Source: an uncultured virus (IMG/VR IMGVR_UViG_3300010883_027406) | Taxonomy: Duplodnaviria; Heunggongvirae; Uroviricota; Caudoviricetes | Length of the DNA stretch: 64,000 nucleotides | Strand: one strand, 5' to 3' | IMG/VR virus record: IMGVR_UViG_3300010883_027406 | Coordinates: 1-64,000 of that record | Shown: in pieces, positions 1 to 64,000 of the stretch | Position numbering within the stretch: position 1 is the stretch's first letter | Layout: each line of letters opens with the position of its first letter | Program-made: the position numbers and the translations under genes | The notes under the pieces: model-generated | The model's input: the letters and a program-made list of their open reading frames with translations, nothing else | Databases searched by the model: none | What the model was told of the DNA's origin: nothing

Positions 1-531
1 GATGAGGAACTTGGCGAGTCTCCGTTGGGTGACATTAGTGACTTGGTGGAAGGTCGTGATTTTAAATTAATTAAGAGAATGAGAAAATCAGGATCTCAAT
101 CTTATCCTAATTATAACGAATCCAAGTTCCTTGAACCTTCCCCTCTTGGCACTAAAGATAGTGCGAAAGAATGGCTTTCGGGACTTCATGACCTTTCTTC
201 TCTTCGAAGCTTAAAGACAGAAGAGGAGCTTAAGCATGAACTTAAGATGTTCCTTGGAGTGGCACAGGAGAACGCTTCTGGCGGGTTTGATCCTTCGGAA
301 TTTAAACTTGAAGGCGCACCGGCTGTTACTCTTCCCATGCCTGATTCAATGAAGTCTCAAGAGGTCGCAGGTGCGGCGAGTGGTGAGACCGCACCTTTTG
401 ATGTAGAAGAGTCTACCACACCAGAAGAGTCTGCCCCGCCAGCAGAAAAGGTAGAAGCGTCATCTGATGACGGGGATGATGAGGTTTTGGCTGATGACGA
501 CTTTCTTAAAGAGTTAAGAAATTTAGGGTAA
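1..531 (+). CDS. T4 gp32-like single-stranded DNA-binding protein, C-terminal part (5' truncated by window edge)
   Basis: Frame is open from base 1. GDISDLVEGRDFKL..YPNYNESKF resembles the gp32 core; long acidic tail (DDGDDEVLADDDFL); lies just upstream of RecA/UvsX. Confidence 0.65.
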   Translation, partial: DEELGESPLGDISDLVEGRDFKLIKRMRKSGSQSYPNYNESKFLEPSPLGTKDSAKEWLSGLHDLSSLRSLKTEEELKHELKMFLGVAQENASGGFDPSEFKLEGAPAVTLPMPDSMKSQEVAGAASGETAPFDVEESTTPEESAPPAEKVEASSDDGDDEVLADDDFLKELRNLG

Positions 532-554
532 AAACAAGTTTTTTGACAATCTTG

Positions 555-590
555 AAAACGCCTGAGTGGTTCTGCTGCTCAGGCGTTTTT
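555..590 (+). terminator. Rho-independent terminator
   Basis: aaaacgcctgag...ctcaggcgttttt inverted repeat with T-run after the SSB gene. Confidence 0.8.
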
Positions 591-2788: not shown

Positions 2789-3817
2789 ATGGATATGAGT
2801 GATGATTATTTGGGATTCGATTACAGCAGACGTTTTGGTGTTGAGATTGAATTGAATTCGCTGGACGGACGCAGCAGACCGCTGACAAGGGAGAACCCTG
2901 TTGGTTCTGATTATGTCGCTAATTTAATTTCTAGATCTTTAAGCAAAACTGTAGAAATAGCCAAGTGGCATCATACTCATAATAACGAATTCTGGATTGT
3001 CAAACCTGATTCGAGTTGTGGCATAGAGGTCTGTTCTCCCGTGTCTAAGGGGTGGAAAGGTCTTAAAGACATATGCCGTGTTGTTGAAGGGTTTTCTAAT
3101 GATGAGTCAATTGCGGCGGATGAGAGGTGCTCTTTACACGTTCATGTTGAAGTGGCGGACCTGTCAGAGAGCGAGTTGGCCTCGGTTTTGTATTATTGGA
3201 TCAAATGCGAGCCGGTTTTTTTTGACTCGGTTCCTCACGAGAGAAAGAGCAATCGTTATTGTCAGTTTATAGGTTTGACTGATCTAATTGGACATGATGC
3301 GGAAATGTCCCCATCTCTTCTTATTTCTAGGTTAGGAAATGTAAAATATTATTCTTTAAACACCTATCACCTCAAGAAGGGGAAGCGGGAAACTATAGAG
3401 TTTAGGATTATAGGAAATTCGGGGTGTCTTGACCCATTTTTGGTTAAAAACTGGGTTAGGCTTATTGTCCATTTTATCAATGTCACCAGCAAAATGGGAA
3501 TCCCCGGACATTATGCAGAGGGAGATCCATGGTCGTCTTTTTTATGGCTAGATGCAAAAGACGTTTTTAGATTATTGGGATTTTGGGATAGCAACAAGAC
3601 TCTATCAGAAGGGGTCAAGCAAACTAGGGATTGGTTTTTAGCAAGATTAAAGAAGAATGGTTCTCTATTAGATTGTGATGGGTTTTGGAGTACGCATTCT
3701 AGATTTGTTTCTAATTCTCAAGTTTCTGAGATGTTTTTAATACTAGGATTAGGTGAGATTAATAAATTATTATACCCAGTAGGGGGAGATCTTATTTATT
3801 CTAAGAAATTTATTTAG
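2789..3817 (+). CDS. putative amidoligase (COOH-NH2 ligase, Amidoligase_2 family)
   Basis: FGVEIE, W.VKPDSSC, GIEVCSPV, CSLHVHV, TIEFR motifs. Confidence 0.85.
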   Translation: MDMSDDYLGFDYSRRFGVEIELNSLDGRSRPLTRENPVGSDYVANLISRSLSKTVEIAKWHHTHNNEFWIVKPDSSCGIEVCSPVSKGWKGLKDICRVVEGFSNDESIAADERCSLHVHVEVADLSESELASVLYYWIKCEPVFFDSVPHERKSNRYCQFIGLTDLIGHDAEMSPSLLISRLGNVKYYSLNTYHLKKGKRETIEFRIIGNSGCLDPFLVKNWVRLIVHFINVTSKMGIPGHYAEGDPWSSFLWLDAKDVFRLLGFWDSNKTLSEGVKQTRDWFLARLKKNGSLLDCDGFWSTHSRFVSNSQVSEMFLILGLGEINKLLYPVGGDLIYSKKFI

Positions 3818-46687: not shown

Positions 46688-48052
46688 ATGATTAACTATC
46701 CATCGAATACCTCTGGTAGCTGCAATAATAAAACGGGTTGTCCTACAACTTCGTATTGCCCTGATTTTCAAATTAAAAGGTTTGATACCAAGCCTTCATT
46801 CAAGGTGTCTCTTGTAGACTGTAAAGGCCCTTTGAACATTCATGGGCTTATCGCAGAAGCCAATATGTGGGCTGAGGCCAAGTTAAAGAGCGCACTCACA
46901 GCAGGCACCCAAGCGACAGGCACAGTCACTATTGTTGAAGAAGCAAATTTGGTTGCAACCACTCATTATATTACCATTACTACGACTGACGGAACTGTAA
47001 TAACGGCAACAGTTACAGCAAATGGAGGAGCTACCACAACCACTAATACAAATTCTCCAACTTGGGCAATAGTGGATGCCAGCGAAGCCTCTACTGCTGT
47101 TAATTTGGCAACTTGTTTAAATGCCAATTCTAAATTGATTGCTACTGCCAGCAATGGAGTGGTGACAATAACACAACTTGCTTCTGGTACTGCTGGAAAT
47201 GCAGCTATTGCTTTGACCGATCCTGCTGCTGGTATGTCTAAAGTTGATTTTACAGGAGGAGTAGATCCTAGTCTTTCTTTAAGTTTGGCTGATAATATTG
47301 GTTTTGAACAGGTAATGGTTGGCGATGTCATAATTATGGAACGTGCTCGACGGCCTGAGCACATGTTGGTAAAGGCCTTTGATGAAACAAATAGTTTGAT
47401 TAGCGTCCAAAGGTCTTATAACGACACAGAGGCTTTTGCATGGAAGAAGGGTTCCAAATTAAAAATATTTAGAGTTTTAAATTCTTCTGCTGATGTTGAG
47501 TTGGTTTTTGAAGATGTTATTCAAGTAGATGGAACTTCAAAAAGCACTCTTGTTGAGGCCGATGTCCTTTATGATTGGAAAGCCAATGACACTTGCTTGT
47601 CTGGTTGCTATTTATTTGAATTTAAATTGATTAAAATGCAGGAGATATTATACTTTTTGCAAGGAGGAAGTTGGGCGGGAGAAACTCATCAAGTATCCGG
47701 TGTATATTATACGGGTACCTCCGCAACAGATAGTTCTGTTCCGTTGTCGTATGATCCTGAAACGGGAACTTTTTTGCTTCCTTCTACTCAATGGACTGGA
47801 AACAATCATGTGGTTGATCCAGATTATAAGACGGGCACATCAGAAAATGATGGATCGGTCGTATTAAACACGACTGGAGTTGAATCTGATAATTCTGTAG
47901 TATATGGCCAAGCCTTTACTGATTCGTCATTTGCGGTGACTGATTTTGGCTGTGGTCTTTCGGATGGGGTAGAATGGGTGCGCAGTTACCCCAAAAATAA
48001 GGAAGGTTTTTTTGTTGAAATAACAAGTTCGCCAATTTCGGAGAACTATTAA
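46688..48052 (+). CDS. probable virion structural protein with an inserted ~118-aa Thr/Ala-rich beta domain (46913-47266)
   Basis: F.IKR.DT.P.F.V.L and Y.W...DT...G.Y..EF (BppU-like); the insert matches the repeats of the ORF at 62367; ATATATAA-N4-ATG. Confidence 0.65.
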   Translation: MINYPSNTSGSCNNKTGCPTTSYCPDFQIKRFDTKPSFKVSLVDCKGPLNIHGLIAEANMWAEAKLKSALTAGTQATGTVTIVEEANLVATTHYITITTTDGTVITATVTANGGATTTTNTNSPTWAIVDASEASTAVNLATCLNANSKLIATASNGVVTITQLASGTAGNAAIALTDPAAGMSKVDFTGGVDPSLSLSLADNIGFEQVMVGDVIIMERARRPEHMLVKAFDETNSLISVQRSYNDTEAFAWKKGSKLKIFRVLNSSADVELVFEDVIQVDGTSKSTLVEADVLYDWKANDTCLSGCYLFEFKLIKMQEILYFLQGGSWAGETHQVSGVYYTGTSATDSSVPLSYDPETGTFLLPSTQWTGNNHVVDPDYKTGTSENDGSVVLNTTGVESDNSVVYGQAFTDSSFAVTDFGCGLSDGVEWVRSYPKNKEGFFVEITSSPISENY

Positions 48053-61093: not shown

Positions 61094-61113
61094 ATTATAT
61101 CATATATAACTTG

Positions 61114-61767
61114 ATGGCAAGAAAACCAACTACCAAAAAAAGTCCTCGTAAAACTTTTCATATAGACTTCCTTAATCCTGCACAAAAGGAAGCTTATGAT
61201 TGTTTTTGCGAGAATGATGTTACATTTTTATTAGGACCCGCAGGAGTGGGTAAGTCATATTTGGCAACAGCTTTTGCTATAAACGAAGTTCTTTCTAAGA
61301 GAAAAAAAAGAATTATATTGACTCGCCCTATAGTTGAGGCTGGTGAAAGCTTAGGATTTTTGCCTGGCACTTTTGATGAAAAAGTCAATCCATATATGCT
61401 TCCTTTATTTGACGCAATAACCAAATTGACTGGTTCTGAATCCCAAAAAGAGGCTATAGAGAAAGCTATTGAAGTAGCTCCTTTAGCATATATGAGGGGA
61501 AGGTCTTTTGATGATTCTGTTTGTATATTTGATGAAGCTCAGAACGCTACTAAACAACAATTGAAGCTTTTTTTAAGTCGTTTTAATGATAATAGTAAAG
61601 TAATTGTTACTGGCGATCCACGACAAAGTGATTTGTTGGGCGATGTAGCATTAACATATGTTGTTTCTAGACTAGAGAGTATCGACGGCATTGGCGTTAT
61701 TGAATTTGGCTCAGATTCTATTGTTCGGCATCCTTTAGTCTCTGCAATTCTTGAAAGACTAGAGTAA
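61114..61767 (+). CDS. phoH: PhoH-family ATPase
   Basis: GPAGVGKSYLA, LTRP.VEAGE.LGFLPG, PLAYMRGRSF, DEAQN, VTGD..Q.D, VRHPLV. Confidence 0.95.
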   Translation: MARKPTTKKSPRKTFHIDFLNPAQKEAYDCFCENDVTFLLGPAGVGKSYLATAFAINEVLSKRKKRIILTRPIVEAGESLGFLPGTFDEKVNPYMLPLFDAITKLTGSESQKEAIEKAIEVAPLAYMRGRSFDDSVCIFDEAQNATKQQLKLFLSRFNDNSKVIVTGDPRQSDLLGDVALTYVVSRLESIDGIGVIEFGSDSIVRHPLVSAILERLE

Positions 61768-61806
61768 ATAATACATACTATTAGTCTTTTTTTATGGAGT
61801 TGTTTG

Positions 61807-62367
61807 ATGGCAGTGGTTAGCGAACTTTCCTTGAAGTGGAATGTAGGTAAACTTCCCCTTAAGAATTATCGTGTTGAGGGGTGTTGTATTGTGCCCGGCC
61901 AGAATACTACTGGATTTGACACTGGTCAAACCACTCCTGACACAGGAGCGCCCAATCCTAATGCTGGCCTTAAGTGCGAGTCTAGATTTGTTGTTAATAT
62001 ATTAGCAAGAGATCTGGGTGATTTGTGCCTTCAGTTAAGAAAGAGGGAATTTTATTGGCCTATCTGCAAAATACAGGTTTTTAACCAACCGGCACAGGGG
62101 GCAAACCTTAAAGGATTTGGTAATCCATTGGGACCACCCAACACCGATTGCTGTTCTGACATATATGGAGACCCCACAGAAGCAGCGCCATCTGGTCCTA
62201 ATGTGCCTAATGCAAATGAAGTGGAATTTCAAACTTTAACTGACATTCCACATGTCGTATGGGCTAATGTTCCTGAATGTATAGACTATAATGTTACCCA
62301 TATATACAAAAAGTTAAATTTTTCAATTGCAGTTGAAAGGGTGTTTGTTTTTGGGGGCGGTGAATAA
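61807..62367 (+). CDS. hypothetical protein, probably virion-associated
   Basis: GGAG RBS; coupled (TAATG) to the following large repeat protein. Confidence 0.65.
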   Translation: MAVVSELSLKWNVGKLPLKNYRVEGCCIVPGQNTTGFDTGQTTPDTGAPNPNAGLKCESRFVVNILARDLGDLCLQLRKREFYWPICKIQVFNQPAQGANLKGFGNPLGPPNTDCCSDIYGDPTEAAPSGPNVPNANEVEFQTLTDIPHVVWANVPECIDYNVTHIYKKLNFSIAVERVFVFGGGE

Positions 62368-64000
62368 TGGCGCATATGAATTTAGGAGGCAGCGCCGTTG
62401 CTGTAATTGCCCGTCCTCATGGTAACTATGTTGGGATTGATGGAGTTGTTGTAGAAGGACAGGCGACAATAGTTTCGTCGGCACAATCGTACCAGGGCAC
62501 TGCGTCTCCGGTTATTTCTGGGGAATCCATCGTAGTATCCAGTTTTACTCCAAGATATTATTCTCCACGCCCAGCAACCACCACAGTTACTATAATTGAT
62601 AAGATTGAACTTGGCACTGGAGATAAGGTCACTTTACGATCAGCAAGTGCCCCAAGTATAGATATTGATTTTGCTGTAGATCTCGATACCTCAGCCACAT
62701 CCACAGTCACTATAACTGACTATGCCGAACTGAATGATGGAGATAAGGTCGCTTTACGATCAACAAGTGCTCCGAGCACAGACATTGATTTTGCTGTAGA
62801 TTCTGATGTTGCTGCAACCGCCACAGTCACAATAACCGATTATGCTGAACTTAATGCTGGAGACAAGGTGACTTTGCGAGCGACAAACGCTCCAAGCGTA
62901 GATATTGATTTTGATATTGCCTGGGGCACACATGCTGAGAGCTACATCGCTTCTGCGTTGGCAAATCTTATTAATGCAAATTCTAATTTCTCAGCTTCAG
63001 CAAATAATACGGTTGTAACAATCACGCAATCTATTGAAGGAGCAGCGGGGAACACTACGGTTGTTTTAACAGATAGTGGTAACTCTGGTATGTCTAAAAC
63101 GGACTTTACTGGTGGTGTTGACGGGGACTGGGATGTTGGTAGTTCAAACGCTGATGCCGCTGCTGCTTTAGCGATCTTTATTAATGCAAATTCTAATTTC
63201 TCAGCTTCAGCAAATAATGCGGTCGTAACAATCACACAATCTATTGGCAGCGTAGCGGGGAACACTACTGTTTCTTTGACAGACAGTGGTGACGCTGGTA
63301 TGTCTAAAACAGATTTTACTGGTGGTTCTGATGGAAGTTGGGATTTAGGTGCTTCAAATAATGAAGCTGCTTCTGCTTTGGCAATTTTTATTAATGCAAA
63401 CGCCAATTTTTCAGCGGCAGCAAATAATGCCGTTGTAACAATCACACAATCTACTAAAGGAACAGTGGGCAACACTACTGTTTCTTTGACAGATAGTGGT
63501 GACGTTGGTATGTCGAAAACAGATTTTAGTGGTGGTGTAGACAACCCAATTGAAGGAGGTATGGCACTAGGAGGGGTGTATGATGTGGTATCTACTGCAT
63601 ATTCTTTTTCTGGTTCGGGCGGCATTCAGTCTTCTGGGTCGCTTGATGAACATTGGACTGCCAATCCTCGCATTTTGCTTCGTATCATACCAAGTGGAGG
63701 AATTAGTCTTGGCGGCTTGGCCGGTGCTTTTATATCAAATTATGTTGGCCTTGTGCCACTAGAGTTGGGAGGCACTTCTCTTCCATTTAATTCAACTGTT
63801 TATTTATATGCGGGAGTTGGCGGACCCGTTATGTCGGGAGAAGTATACGTAGCCTCGCCATCATGGACATATTCCGCCACTGGCGGGATTTCTTTAGGGG
63901 GAGAGTATTATCCAAGGTTTAATGTTATAGGAAATGATGTTACTACATCTGTTGAATCTGCTTCTACATTTGTTAGTGACGCAACTGTGGGAACCGTTGA
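62367..64000 (+). CDS. large Gly/Thr/Ser-rich structural protein with nested repeats (3' truncated; absent from the ORF track)
   Basis: ATG 62367 overlaps the upstream TAA. Hand translation MAHMNLGGSAVAVIARP... stays open through the repeat region and appears to run off the window. Confidence 0.8.
   Translation, partial: MAHMNLGGSAVAVIARPHGNYVGIDGVVVEGQATIVSSAQSYQGTASPVISGESIVVSSFTPRYYSPRPATTTVTIIDKIELGTGDKVTLRSASAPSIDIDFAVDLDTSATSTVTITDYAELNDGDKVALRSTSAPSTDIDFAVDSDVAATATVTITDYAELNAGDKVTLRATNAPSVDIDFDIAWGTHAESYIASALANLINANSNFSASANNTVVTITQSIEGAAGNTTVVLTDSGNSGMSKTDFTGGVDGDWDVGSSNADAAAALAIFINANSNFSASANNAVVTITQSIGSVAGNTTVSLTDSGDAGMSKTDFTGGSDGSWDLGASNNEAASALAIFINANANFSAAANNAVVTITQSTKGTVGNTTVSLTDSGDVGMSKTDFSGGVDNPIEGGMALGGVYDVVSTAYSFSGSGGIQSSGSLDEHWTANPRILLRIIPSGGISLGGLAGAFISNYVGLVPLELGGTSLPFNSTVYLYAGVGGPVMSGEVYVASPSWTYSATGGISLGGEYYPRFNVIGNDVTTSVESASTFVSDATVGTV
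62574..62933 (+). repeat. three 120-nt (40 aa) repeats, type A
   Basis: AT.TVTI.D..EL..GDKV.LR...APS.DIDF at 62574, 62694 and 62814. Confidence 0.9.
62950..63542 (+). repeat. three 210-nt (70 aa) repeats, type B
   Basis: A.ALA..INAN.NFSA.ANN.VVTITQS..G..GNTTV.LTDSG..GMSKTDF.GG.D; ttaatgcaaa at 62971, 63181 and 63391. Confidence 0.9.

Follow-up and report, generated by a model that had tools for sequence, protein, structure and literature searches.

A repeat array of three first and three second domain halves in an uncultured Caudoviricetes protein, probably formed by a module nested in itself

The repeat array of P0003

The stretch of DNA analysed here (the window) comprises the first 64 kb of an 85,364-bp IMG/VR virus record, IMGVR_UViG_3300010883_027406, which belongs to an uncultured virus of the Caudoviricetes and has a CheckV completeness of 17%. 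An open reading frame (ORF) that starts at 62367 on the plus strand extends beyond the window end at 64000 and ends at 66020 in the full record (L003:367-4020 corresponds to record positions 62367-66020). It encodes a protein of 1,217 aa, referred to as P0003; this and the other P-numbers used below are labels of individual proteins. P0003 carries three 40-aa A units (aa 69-188) followed by three 64-70-aa B units (aa 189-392), and we propose that this AAABBB array is probably a single module inserted into its own copies. The features of the gene within the window are listed below, with profile positions referring to the module profile.

62367..64000, plus strand: 5' part of the 1,217-aa gene of P0003 (ORF; orthologues of 1,217-1,232 aa)
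62367..62570, plus strand: N-terminal 68 aa ahead of the stack, Gly-rich, with short strands GGSAVAV, IDGVVVEG and ISGESIVV
62571..62690 (aa 69-108), plus strand: A1, beta1-beta3, which would be the first half of the outermost module; matches profile positions 2-35 and is modelled as three strands
62691..62810 (aa 109-148), plus strand: A2, first half of the proposed middle module; profile positions 2-42
62811..62930 (aa 149-188), plus strand: A3, first half of the innermost module, directly followed by B1, with which it folds as one domain in the model
62931..63122 (aa 183/189-252), plus strand: B1, the Trp segment, helix and beta4-beta7 that make up the second half of the innermost module; seen in dot plot, profile and model
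63123..63332 (aa 253-322), plus strand: B2, second half of the proposed middle module; profile positions 41-116
63333..63542 (aa 323-392), plus strand: B3, second half of the proposed outermost module; profile positions 41-116

At the DNA level, Tandem Repeats Finder places 2.5 copies of a 120-nt repeat at 62618-62913 (80% match, score 373) and 2.8 copies of a 210-nt repeat at 62948-63537 (82% match, score 793). In a protein dot plot of P0003, aa 68-147 give diagonals at offsets 40 and 80, and aa 191-328 at offsets 70 and 140. Searched against the record, the module profile matches the P0003 gene over its full positions 1-116 once (62811-63122, A3-B1), over positions 41-116 twice (63120-63332 and 63330-63542), and over positions 2-42 and 2-35 at 62694-62816 and 62574-62675, respectively. 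Repeat finder, dot plot and profile thus bear out the sequence-only reading of this DNA, which had described three A repeats of 40 aa and then three B repeats of about 70 aa. Because the A units correspond to profile positions 2-42 and the B units to 41-116, the two halves are exactly complementary, with nothing absent or doubled.

All six units fit one module profile, and their protein identities are 60-70% among A1-A3 and 64-77% among B1-B3. The corresponding DNA identities are 69-74% and 73-80%, without a clear age pairing in the repeat phylogeny or the distances. The copies differ at about 15-30% of their bases, many of the changes being synonymous, and the reading frame is intact throughout; short linkers of about 7 aa join the units. 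Tandem order of whole modules (ABABAB) is not what P0003 has, while true ABAB occurs in P0008 and P0010. The AAABBB order is kept in four orthologues from other samples, with identities of 100, 90, 73 and 72%. In the two divergent orthologues, the sole atypical A unit is A1 (KVILSYDFGVDTTYYF) and the sole B unit with an atypical helix end is B3, in which TVIGASGVF replaces IFINANANF. This co-change may be a weak additional hint of A1-B3 pairing, being one event with a one-in-three probability of arising by chance.

A and B as two halves of one module

A and B are the two halves of one alpha/beta module of about 110 aa, with the order beta1-beta2-beta3, Trp segment, helix and beta4-beta7. When IMG/VR was scanned with A3-B1, 22 loci aligned over the full 104 aa as a single contiguous stretch at 39-60% identity. 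The module profile, built from this alignment, matches 406 proteins in a library of 1.8 billion proteins, and most of these matches span profile positions 1-115 unbroken (among the matches listed, the best 150 of 406). Additionally, plain AB is found in 97 of the 190 proteins surveyed with separate A and B models. The suggestion that A and B form one domain rather than two independent folds therefore holds, both from this contiguity and from the superposition of A3-B1 as a single domain described below. Relatives of the module are also found inside proteins with the sheath Pfam families PF04984 and PF17482. The module is a portable insertion domain of phage virion proteins.

One further copy lies in the window itself:

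46910..47266, plus strand: complete single module, profile positions 1-116, E 3.8e-34, within the gene 46688-48052, which encodes an unrelated 454-aa protein

The single occurrence of A+B in this gene had been read from the letters beforehand, and dot plot and profile agree with it, with the qualification that the A part is weakly similar and that about 12-20 extra residues lie at the A/B junction. The module of the 454-aa protein is itself an insert, in which a Thr-rich stretch (GGATTTTNTNSP) extends the beta3/helix loop; in P0003, this same loop is the proposed site of the nested copies.

No Pfam, PHROG or PDB sequence profile matches the module at meaningful E-values, and it thus falls within no curated family of these collections. 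Because no sequence profile recognises it, its kinship to solved domains is one of fold. A suspected likeness of B to the flagellin "IN" motif (PF07196) was discarded, as Pfam gave no such match, and the link to flagellin and FliD stands at the level of fold.

To model the array, AlphaFold2 was given aa 60-400 of P0003 with the four orthologues and single modules, the latter placed on A3-B1 by MAFFT. In the resulting model, each A unit forms three strands and each B unit a helix and four strands. DSSP assigns to A3-B1 the elements E92-97, E108-112, E119-122, H132-144, E149-154, E157-162, E172-176 and E183-185 (model numbering), that is, three strands, a helix and four strands in about 100-110 residues, which is the order of the fold. 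A Foldseek search of the P0003 model against the PDB found nothing at E <= 0.001. Structural superposition of A3-B1 (model residues 88-190, aa 148-249) gives matches, most of them at Z 8.2-11.0, with a root-mean-square deviation (rmsd) of 2.0-3.2 Å over 81-99 residues, mostly at 17-22% identity. Specifically, the external domains of the tail sheaths of cyanophage A-1(L) (8kee) and PhiTE (9cba) match with Z 10.9-11.0 and an rmsd of 2.0-2.2 Å over 88-89 residues. The nozzle proteins of P-SCSP1u (8i4m, Z 10.6) and T7-like phages (6r21) follow at Z 8.7-10.6, the D2 domain of Pseudomonas aeruginosa flagellin FliC (4nx9) at Z 8.6 and the D3 domains of FliD at Z about 7. Contiguous A3-B1, as modelled, therefore has the fold of the sheath external domain, the T7-type nozzle domain, flagellin D2 and FliD D3.

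The matching solved domains are themselves inserts, so that their termini are adjacent. In Helicobacter pylori FliD (6iwy, 107..431) and Geovibrio flagellin (9au6, 177..589), the matching domain is discontinuous, with about 87 residues aligned in each. Because the solved targets are inserts and several of them are discontinuous, this fold commonly takes part in insertions in either role, as guest or as host.

Matched halves in relatives and the nested arrangement

The relatives of the module split it at four other points (five in all), and the numbers of first and second halves are always equal, at n = 2-6. The survey of homologues for matched numbers that the sequence-only reading had proposed thus returned the expected equality. 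In proteins split after beta4 (P0046, P0050 and P0021), a segment from the module start to beta4 is followed by a linker, a whole module, a "YAY" or short linker and beta5-beta7. In P0152, which splits after the Trp segment, three long A-type units ending in EF/EW precede three units that start at the helix. The beta3 split of P0003 recurs within P0246, P0250, P0255 and P0237.

The split after beta1 yields the deepest series, in which 14-17-aa X units (beta1 and a turn, in two flavours) are followed by 85-aa Y units that hold the remainder of the module. Examples are P0112, P0240 and P0248 at n = 2, P0188, P0164 and P0154 at n = 3, P0196 and P0199 at n = 4, P0175, P0142 and P0235 at n = 5, and P0169, P0200 and P0226 at n = 6. 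Counted with hidden Markov models (HMMs), 15, 21, 4, 8 and 6 proteins lie on the X=Y diagonal for n = 2, 3, 4, 5 and 6. Automatic counting undercounts divergent and "ITYG"-type X units, so the off-diagonal cases were settled by eye and by the position of the stack end; those inspected contain divergent units missed by the HMM. The stack-end measure is alignment-free and independent of X counting. In 39 complete X/Y proteins, the median stack end lies at residue 317.5 (22 proteins), 417 (1), 520 (9) and 619 (7) for n = 3, 4, 5 and 6, a step of about 101 aa that equals 17+85 per level, and no value is off-step, that is, shifted by a multiple of 17. A regression of the first-Y position on n over all proteins was uninformative, as unrelated architectures were mixed in. 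Seemingly unmatched forms (ABB and AAB.BB; P0055, P0152, P0188 and P0175) turned out upon inspection to be nested or matched.

Several relatives combine two split points within one chain. P0250 and P0255 have the order X, X, A, [A B], B, Y, Y; P0237 has X, X, X, A, [A B], B, Y, Y, Y; and P0246 has X, X, A, A, [A B], B, B, Y, Y. In these mixed-split proteins, unit spacing was used, since the short beta2-beta3 HMM is too insensitive. Each X has to be completed by a Y and each A by a B, and mirror (nested) pairing is the only scheme that leaves no module incomplete in them. Parallel pairing (A1-B1, A2-B2, A3-B3) was considered for P0003 and rejected, since the short canonical A3-B1 junction makes it sterically unlikely and the mixed-split relatives fit the mirror order only.

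Other relatives place something else at the centre or turn the order around. P0242 is X3[XY]Y3. P0227, P0230, P0231, P0233 and P0244 (794-803 aa) have X3, an unrelated domain of about 100 aa and Y3; this foreign domain occupies the innermost position, the would-be stalk tip, and its copies also fill the N-terminal 280 aa. Sheath proteins with PF17482 (P0279, P0271, P0287, P0289 and P0290) show the order Y, [X Y], X, in which the outer module seems to be circularly permuted: its beta1 comes after its beta7, and a full module lies in between.

The relative P0188 (418 aa, X3Y3) was modelled by AlphaFold with 22 other natural n = 3 proteins and with no pairing imposed. The model has a mean predicted local distance difference test score (pLDDT) of 89.9 and a predicted template modelling score (pTM) of 0.68, and the X strands (aa 17-66) reach pLDDT 94-98. 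Its structural matches fall into two classes. The first, with Z up to 11.3, places the innermost module (residues 47-147) on the sheath and nozzle domains already matched by A3-B1. The second spans residues 1..400 with only about 95-105 residues aligned to single beta-sandwiches (Z 7.6-10.1), among them GOLD, XepA, YomS, the lambda tail tip and the BPP-1 and KHP40 cement proteins (including 3j4u_H and 7dou_4). The second class thus indicates that one domain of P0188 combines the N-terminal strand (aa 3-10) with the last ~90 aa of the chain, and that the whole stack is inserted into this domain. The outermost closure joins residues 1-10 with about 311-402; this closure and the innermost module are the levels seen in the model. 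In the predicted structure, the P0188 chain therefore runs out and back.

The family of P0188 (P0142, P0169, P0175 and others) shares an "M..LDQRA" leader, an X^nY^n stack with n = 3-6 and a C-terminal part of about 100 aa. In the P0188 model, the first strand and the C-terminal part build a jelly-roll-like beta-sandwich that resembles phage cement or decoration proteins. From this model, members of the family may possibly decorate the capsid or the tail, on a stalk whose length can be adjusted.

We propose, at a probability of about 0.8, that P0003 is nested as A1[A2[A3-B1]B2]B3, forming an out-and-back rod of three domains. The sequence-only reading had likewise taken AAABBB as nesting, and matched halves, mirror order and the P0188 model support it by comparison; the A1-B3 and A2-B2 pairing, the rod shape and a role as spacer or adhesion arm on the virion are inferred for P0003. 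In this arrangement, the module would sit in the beta3/helix loop of its own copy, twice over, and the chain would run outward via the three first halves and return via the three second halves. The three stacked domains would make a rod of roughly 8-9 nm, both ends of which would meet the remaining protein at the base, with the 68 Gly-rich aa on its N-terminal side and the other 825 aa on its C-terminal side. For the stack to be linear, the split loops must face away from the termini, at the opposite pole of the module. Splits after elements 1, 3 and 5 would all do so, provided that each of the eight secondary-structure elements runs the full length of the module. As the module occurs on sheaths, nozzles and fibre-like proteins, the stack is probably a virion surface arm.

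Several points weigh against this arrangement. A single tandem duplication cannot yield AABB, and a matched pair would need two unequal exchanges or a module copy inserted into a loop. The AlphaFold2 model of P0003 aa 60-400 is weak (mean pLDDT 61.7, pTM 0.36), with A1 and A2 at pLDDT of about 45-62 and B2 and B3 at 73-82, and its structural matches (VIA-align) all lie on A3-B1, its only usable part. Because the model of P0003 itself is weak, the nesting proposed for this protein draws on the comparison of relatives and on the confident P0188 model. Additionally, the exact AAABBB form is found in one lineage of four orthologues, all with n = 3, so that the matched numbers of this lineage count as one observation. 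Finally, monomer predictions cannot exclude pairing between chains.

Such between-chain complementation is the alternative that survives best, although we consider it improbable. The spare A units of one chain would complete the spare B units of a neighbour by domain swapping, for example in a trimeric fibre; many phage fibres are trimeric, and the arrangement would equally demand equal numbers of A and B. However, the P0188 monomer model is confident and closed without a partner (pLDDT 89.9), the mirror order of mixed splits is a prediction of nesting within one chain, and the inter-unit linkers of about 7 aa are short.

Somewhat less probable still is that A and B were amplified in tandem independently, with a nine-stranded A sheet and three B domains folding apart and the equal counts being a coincidence. 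Tandem expansion is the commonest route to repeats, both arrays are ordinary head-to-tail DNA repeats, the pLDDT of B2 and B3 (73-82) exceeds that of A1 and A2 (45-62), and weak B-like units without a detectable A occur in distant proteins. Yet elsewhere A and B are always halves of one domain, and copy numbers are equal in every inspected multi-copy relative across five split points, the apparent exceptions P0055, P0152, P0188 and P0175 being nested or matched forms. Independent amplification would also leave the mirror order of the mixed proteins without explanation. An assembly or gene-calling artefact of the metagenomic contig, conceivable for a fragment of an uncultured virus at 17% completeness and for repeats prone to mis-assembly, can practically be set aside, because four proteins of different sources (72-100% identity) share the AAABBB architecture and the copies differ at about 15-30% of bases, many synonymously and in an intact frame.

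Known systems, surroundings and meaning

T4 gp18-type "Russian doll" tail sheaths have domains nested within domains of different kinds. Like the proposed P0003 stack, their chain runs out and back; unlike it, they nest unlike domains rather than one module in itself, and P0003 is not a sheath protein. The fold of A3-B1 is shared by the sheath external domains (8kee residues 91-185, 9cba residues 86-178, Mu and Milano), the nozzle domain (8i4m, 6r21 residues ~148-248), flagellin D2 (4nx9) and FliD D3 (5h5w), but these solved sheath, nozzle, flagellin and FliD proteins hold one copy.

Nesting of the same domain has solved precedents. In the Si3 insertion of the cyanobacterial RNA polymerase beta' subunit (Thermosynechococcus/Synechococcus), four of the eight copies of the sandwich-barrel hybrid motif (SBHM-2 to SBHM-5) are assembled from distant parts of the chain, and Si3 forms an elongated arm of 150 Å, running out and back, within a loop of the larger protein (PMC10895346). 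Si3 resembles P0003 in having several copies of one small beta-rich domain in a non-tandem arrangement. It differs in its fold, the sandwich-barrel hybrid motif, and in being part of a cellular enzyme rather than a virion protein; its copies are old and divergent, whereas the P0003 halves are still recognisable as 40- and 70-aa repeats at about 70-85% nucleotide identity, with a depth of 2-6 among relatives. In Geovibrio thiophilus flagellin (PDB 9au6), D4 and D5 show same-domain nesting of beta-sandwiches like DUF992 (PMC11532411). These outer domains form a hairpin in which the chain runs out and back, as proposed for P0003, but they comprise two levels only, belong to a bacterial filament and do not clearly have the A+B fold; 9au6 is also among the structural hits of the module, though weakly and over a discontinuous stretch (Z 4.5, chain range 177..589, 86 residues aligned). 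Literature searches worded as nested or self-inserting domains found nothing relevant. The principle of same-domain nesting is therefore not new, and the view that recursive insertion of the same domain was unprecedented was wrong; the three-level case of P0003 adds supporting material and is not a first. What differs here is a module without a curated family, recognisable repeats, several alternative split loops and natural variation of depth by matched pairs.

The remainder of P0003 gives few leads. Neither Pfam nor PHROG yields a family for the whole 1,217-aa protein at E <= 0.01, and in the same searches the sheath core domains PF04984 and PF17482 are not matched, so that P0003 does not qualify as a contractile sheath. 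SGGIxLGG-like motifs reappear downstream of the stack: Gly-rich strand motifs (GGSAVAV, SGGISLGG, TGGISLGGEYY, SGGITISGEAIL and SGGATLSG) are found at window positions 62367-62570 and 63543-64000 and at L003:~3240-3430, that is, on both sides of the stack and again at about aa 960-1020. These motifs may form another out-and-back element or a beta-helix. In the C-terminal part (L003:2365-2556, record 64365-64556, aa ~667-730), there are two weak leads to CBM96-type carbohydrate binding, each at noise level by itself: Pfam PF24517 (E 0.012, 15.9 bits, under the cut-off of 26) and ESM Atlas neighbours at 0.78.

The P0003 gene lies outside a classical structural module, among metabolic neighbours. 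A PhoH gene is located upstream (window 61111-61767), and a 187-aa ORF without a family (61804-62367) abuts the start codon of P0003. Downstream are a class-I fructose-bisphosphate aldolase gene (L003:4273-5301, minus strand, PF00274, E 1.7e-127) and an amidoligase gene (L003:5407-6348). A 227-aa antisense ORF (window 62942-63625, minus strand) overlies the B repeats and is repetitive itself; it is most likely a shadow of the B repeats and not a gene.

Protein repeats are almost always tandem, and n first halves followed by n second halves represent a different way of lengthening a protein. Since both ends of such a rod lie together, it could plug into a loop of any host protein and lengthen without disturbing the host. 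The system can be read from sequence and offers natural variants with n = 2-6 for asking how domains tolerate self-insertion; it also raises a folding question, as completion of the outermost domain has to await synthesis of the entire chain, and would be useful for studying how phages tune the reach of surface appendages. More generally, discontinuous domains can be recognised in sequence alone by halves that match in copy number and follow in mirror order.

Beyond P0003, we lean slightly towards the view that the ~110-aa module is a general, evolvable "ruler" of phage virions that nests in itself at several loops opposite its termini. If so, levels would be gained or lost solely as matched pairs, so that the protein sequences would follow an a^n b^n grammar, and the stalk would set the distance of its tip, which may be the innermost module or a foreign domain (X3-Z-Y3), from the particle. 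P0003 would then be a three-level member that uses the beta3/helix loop.

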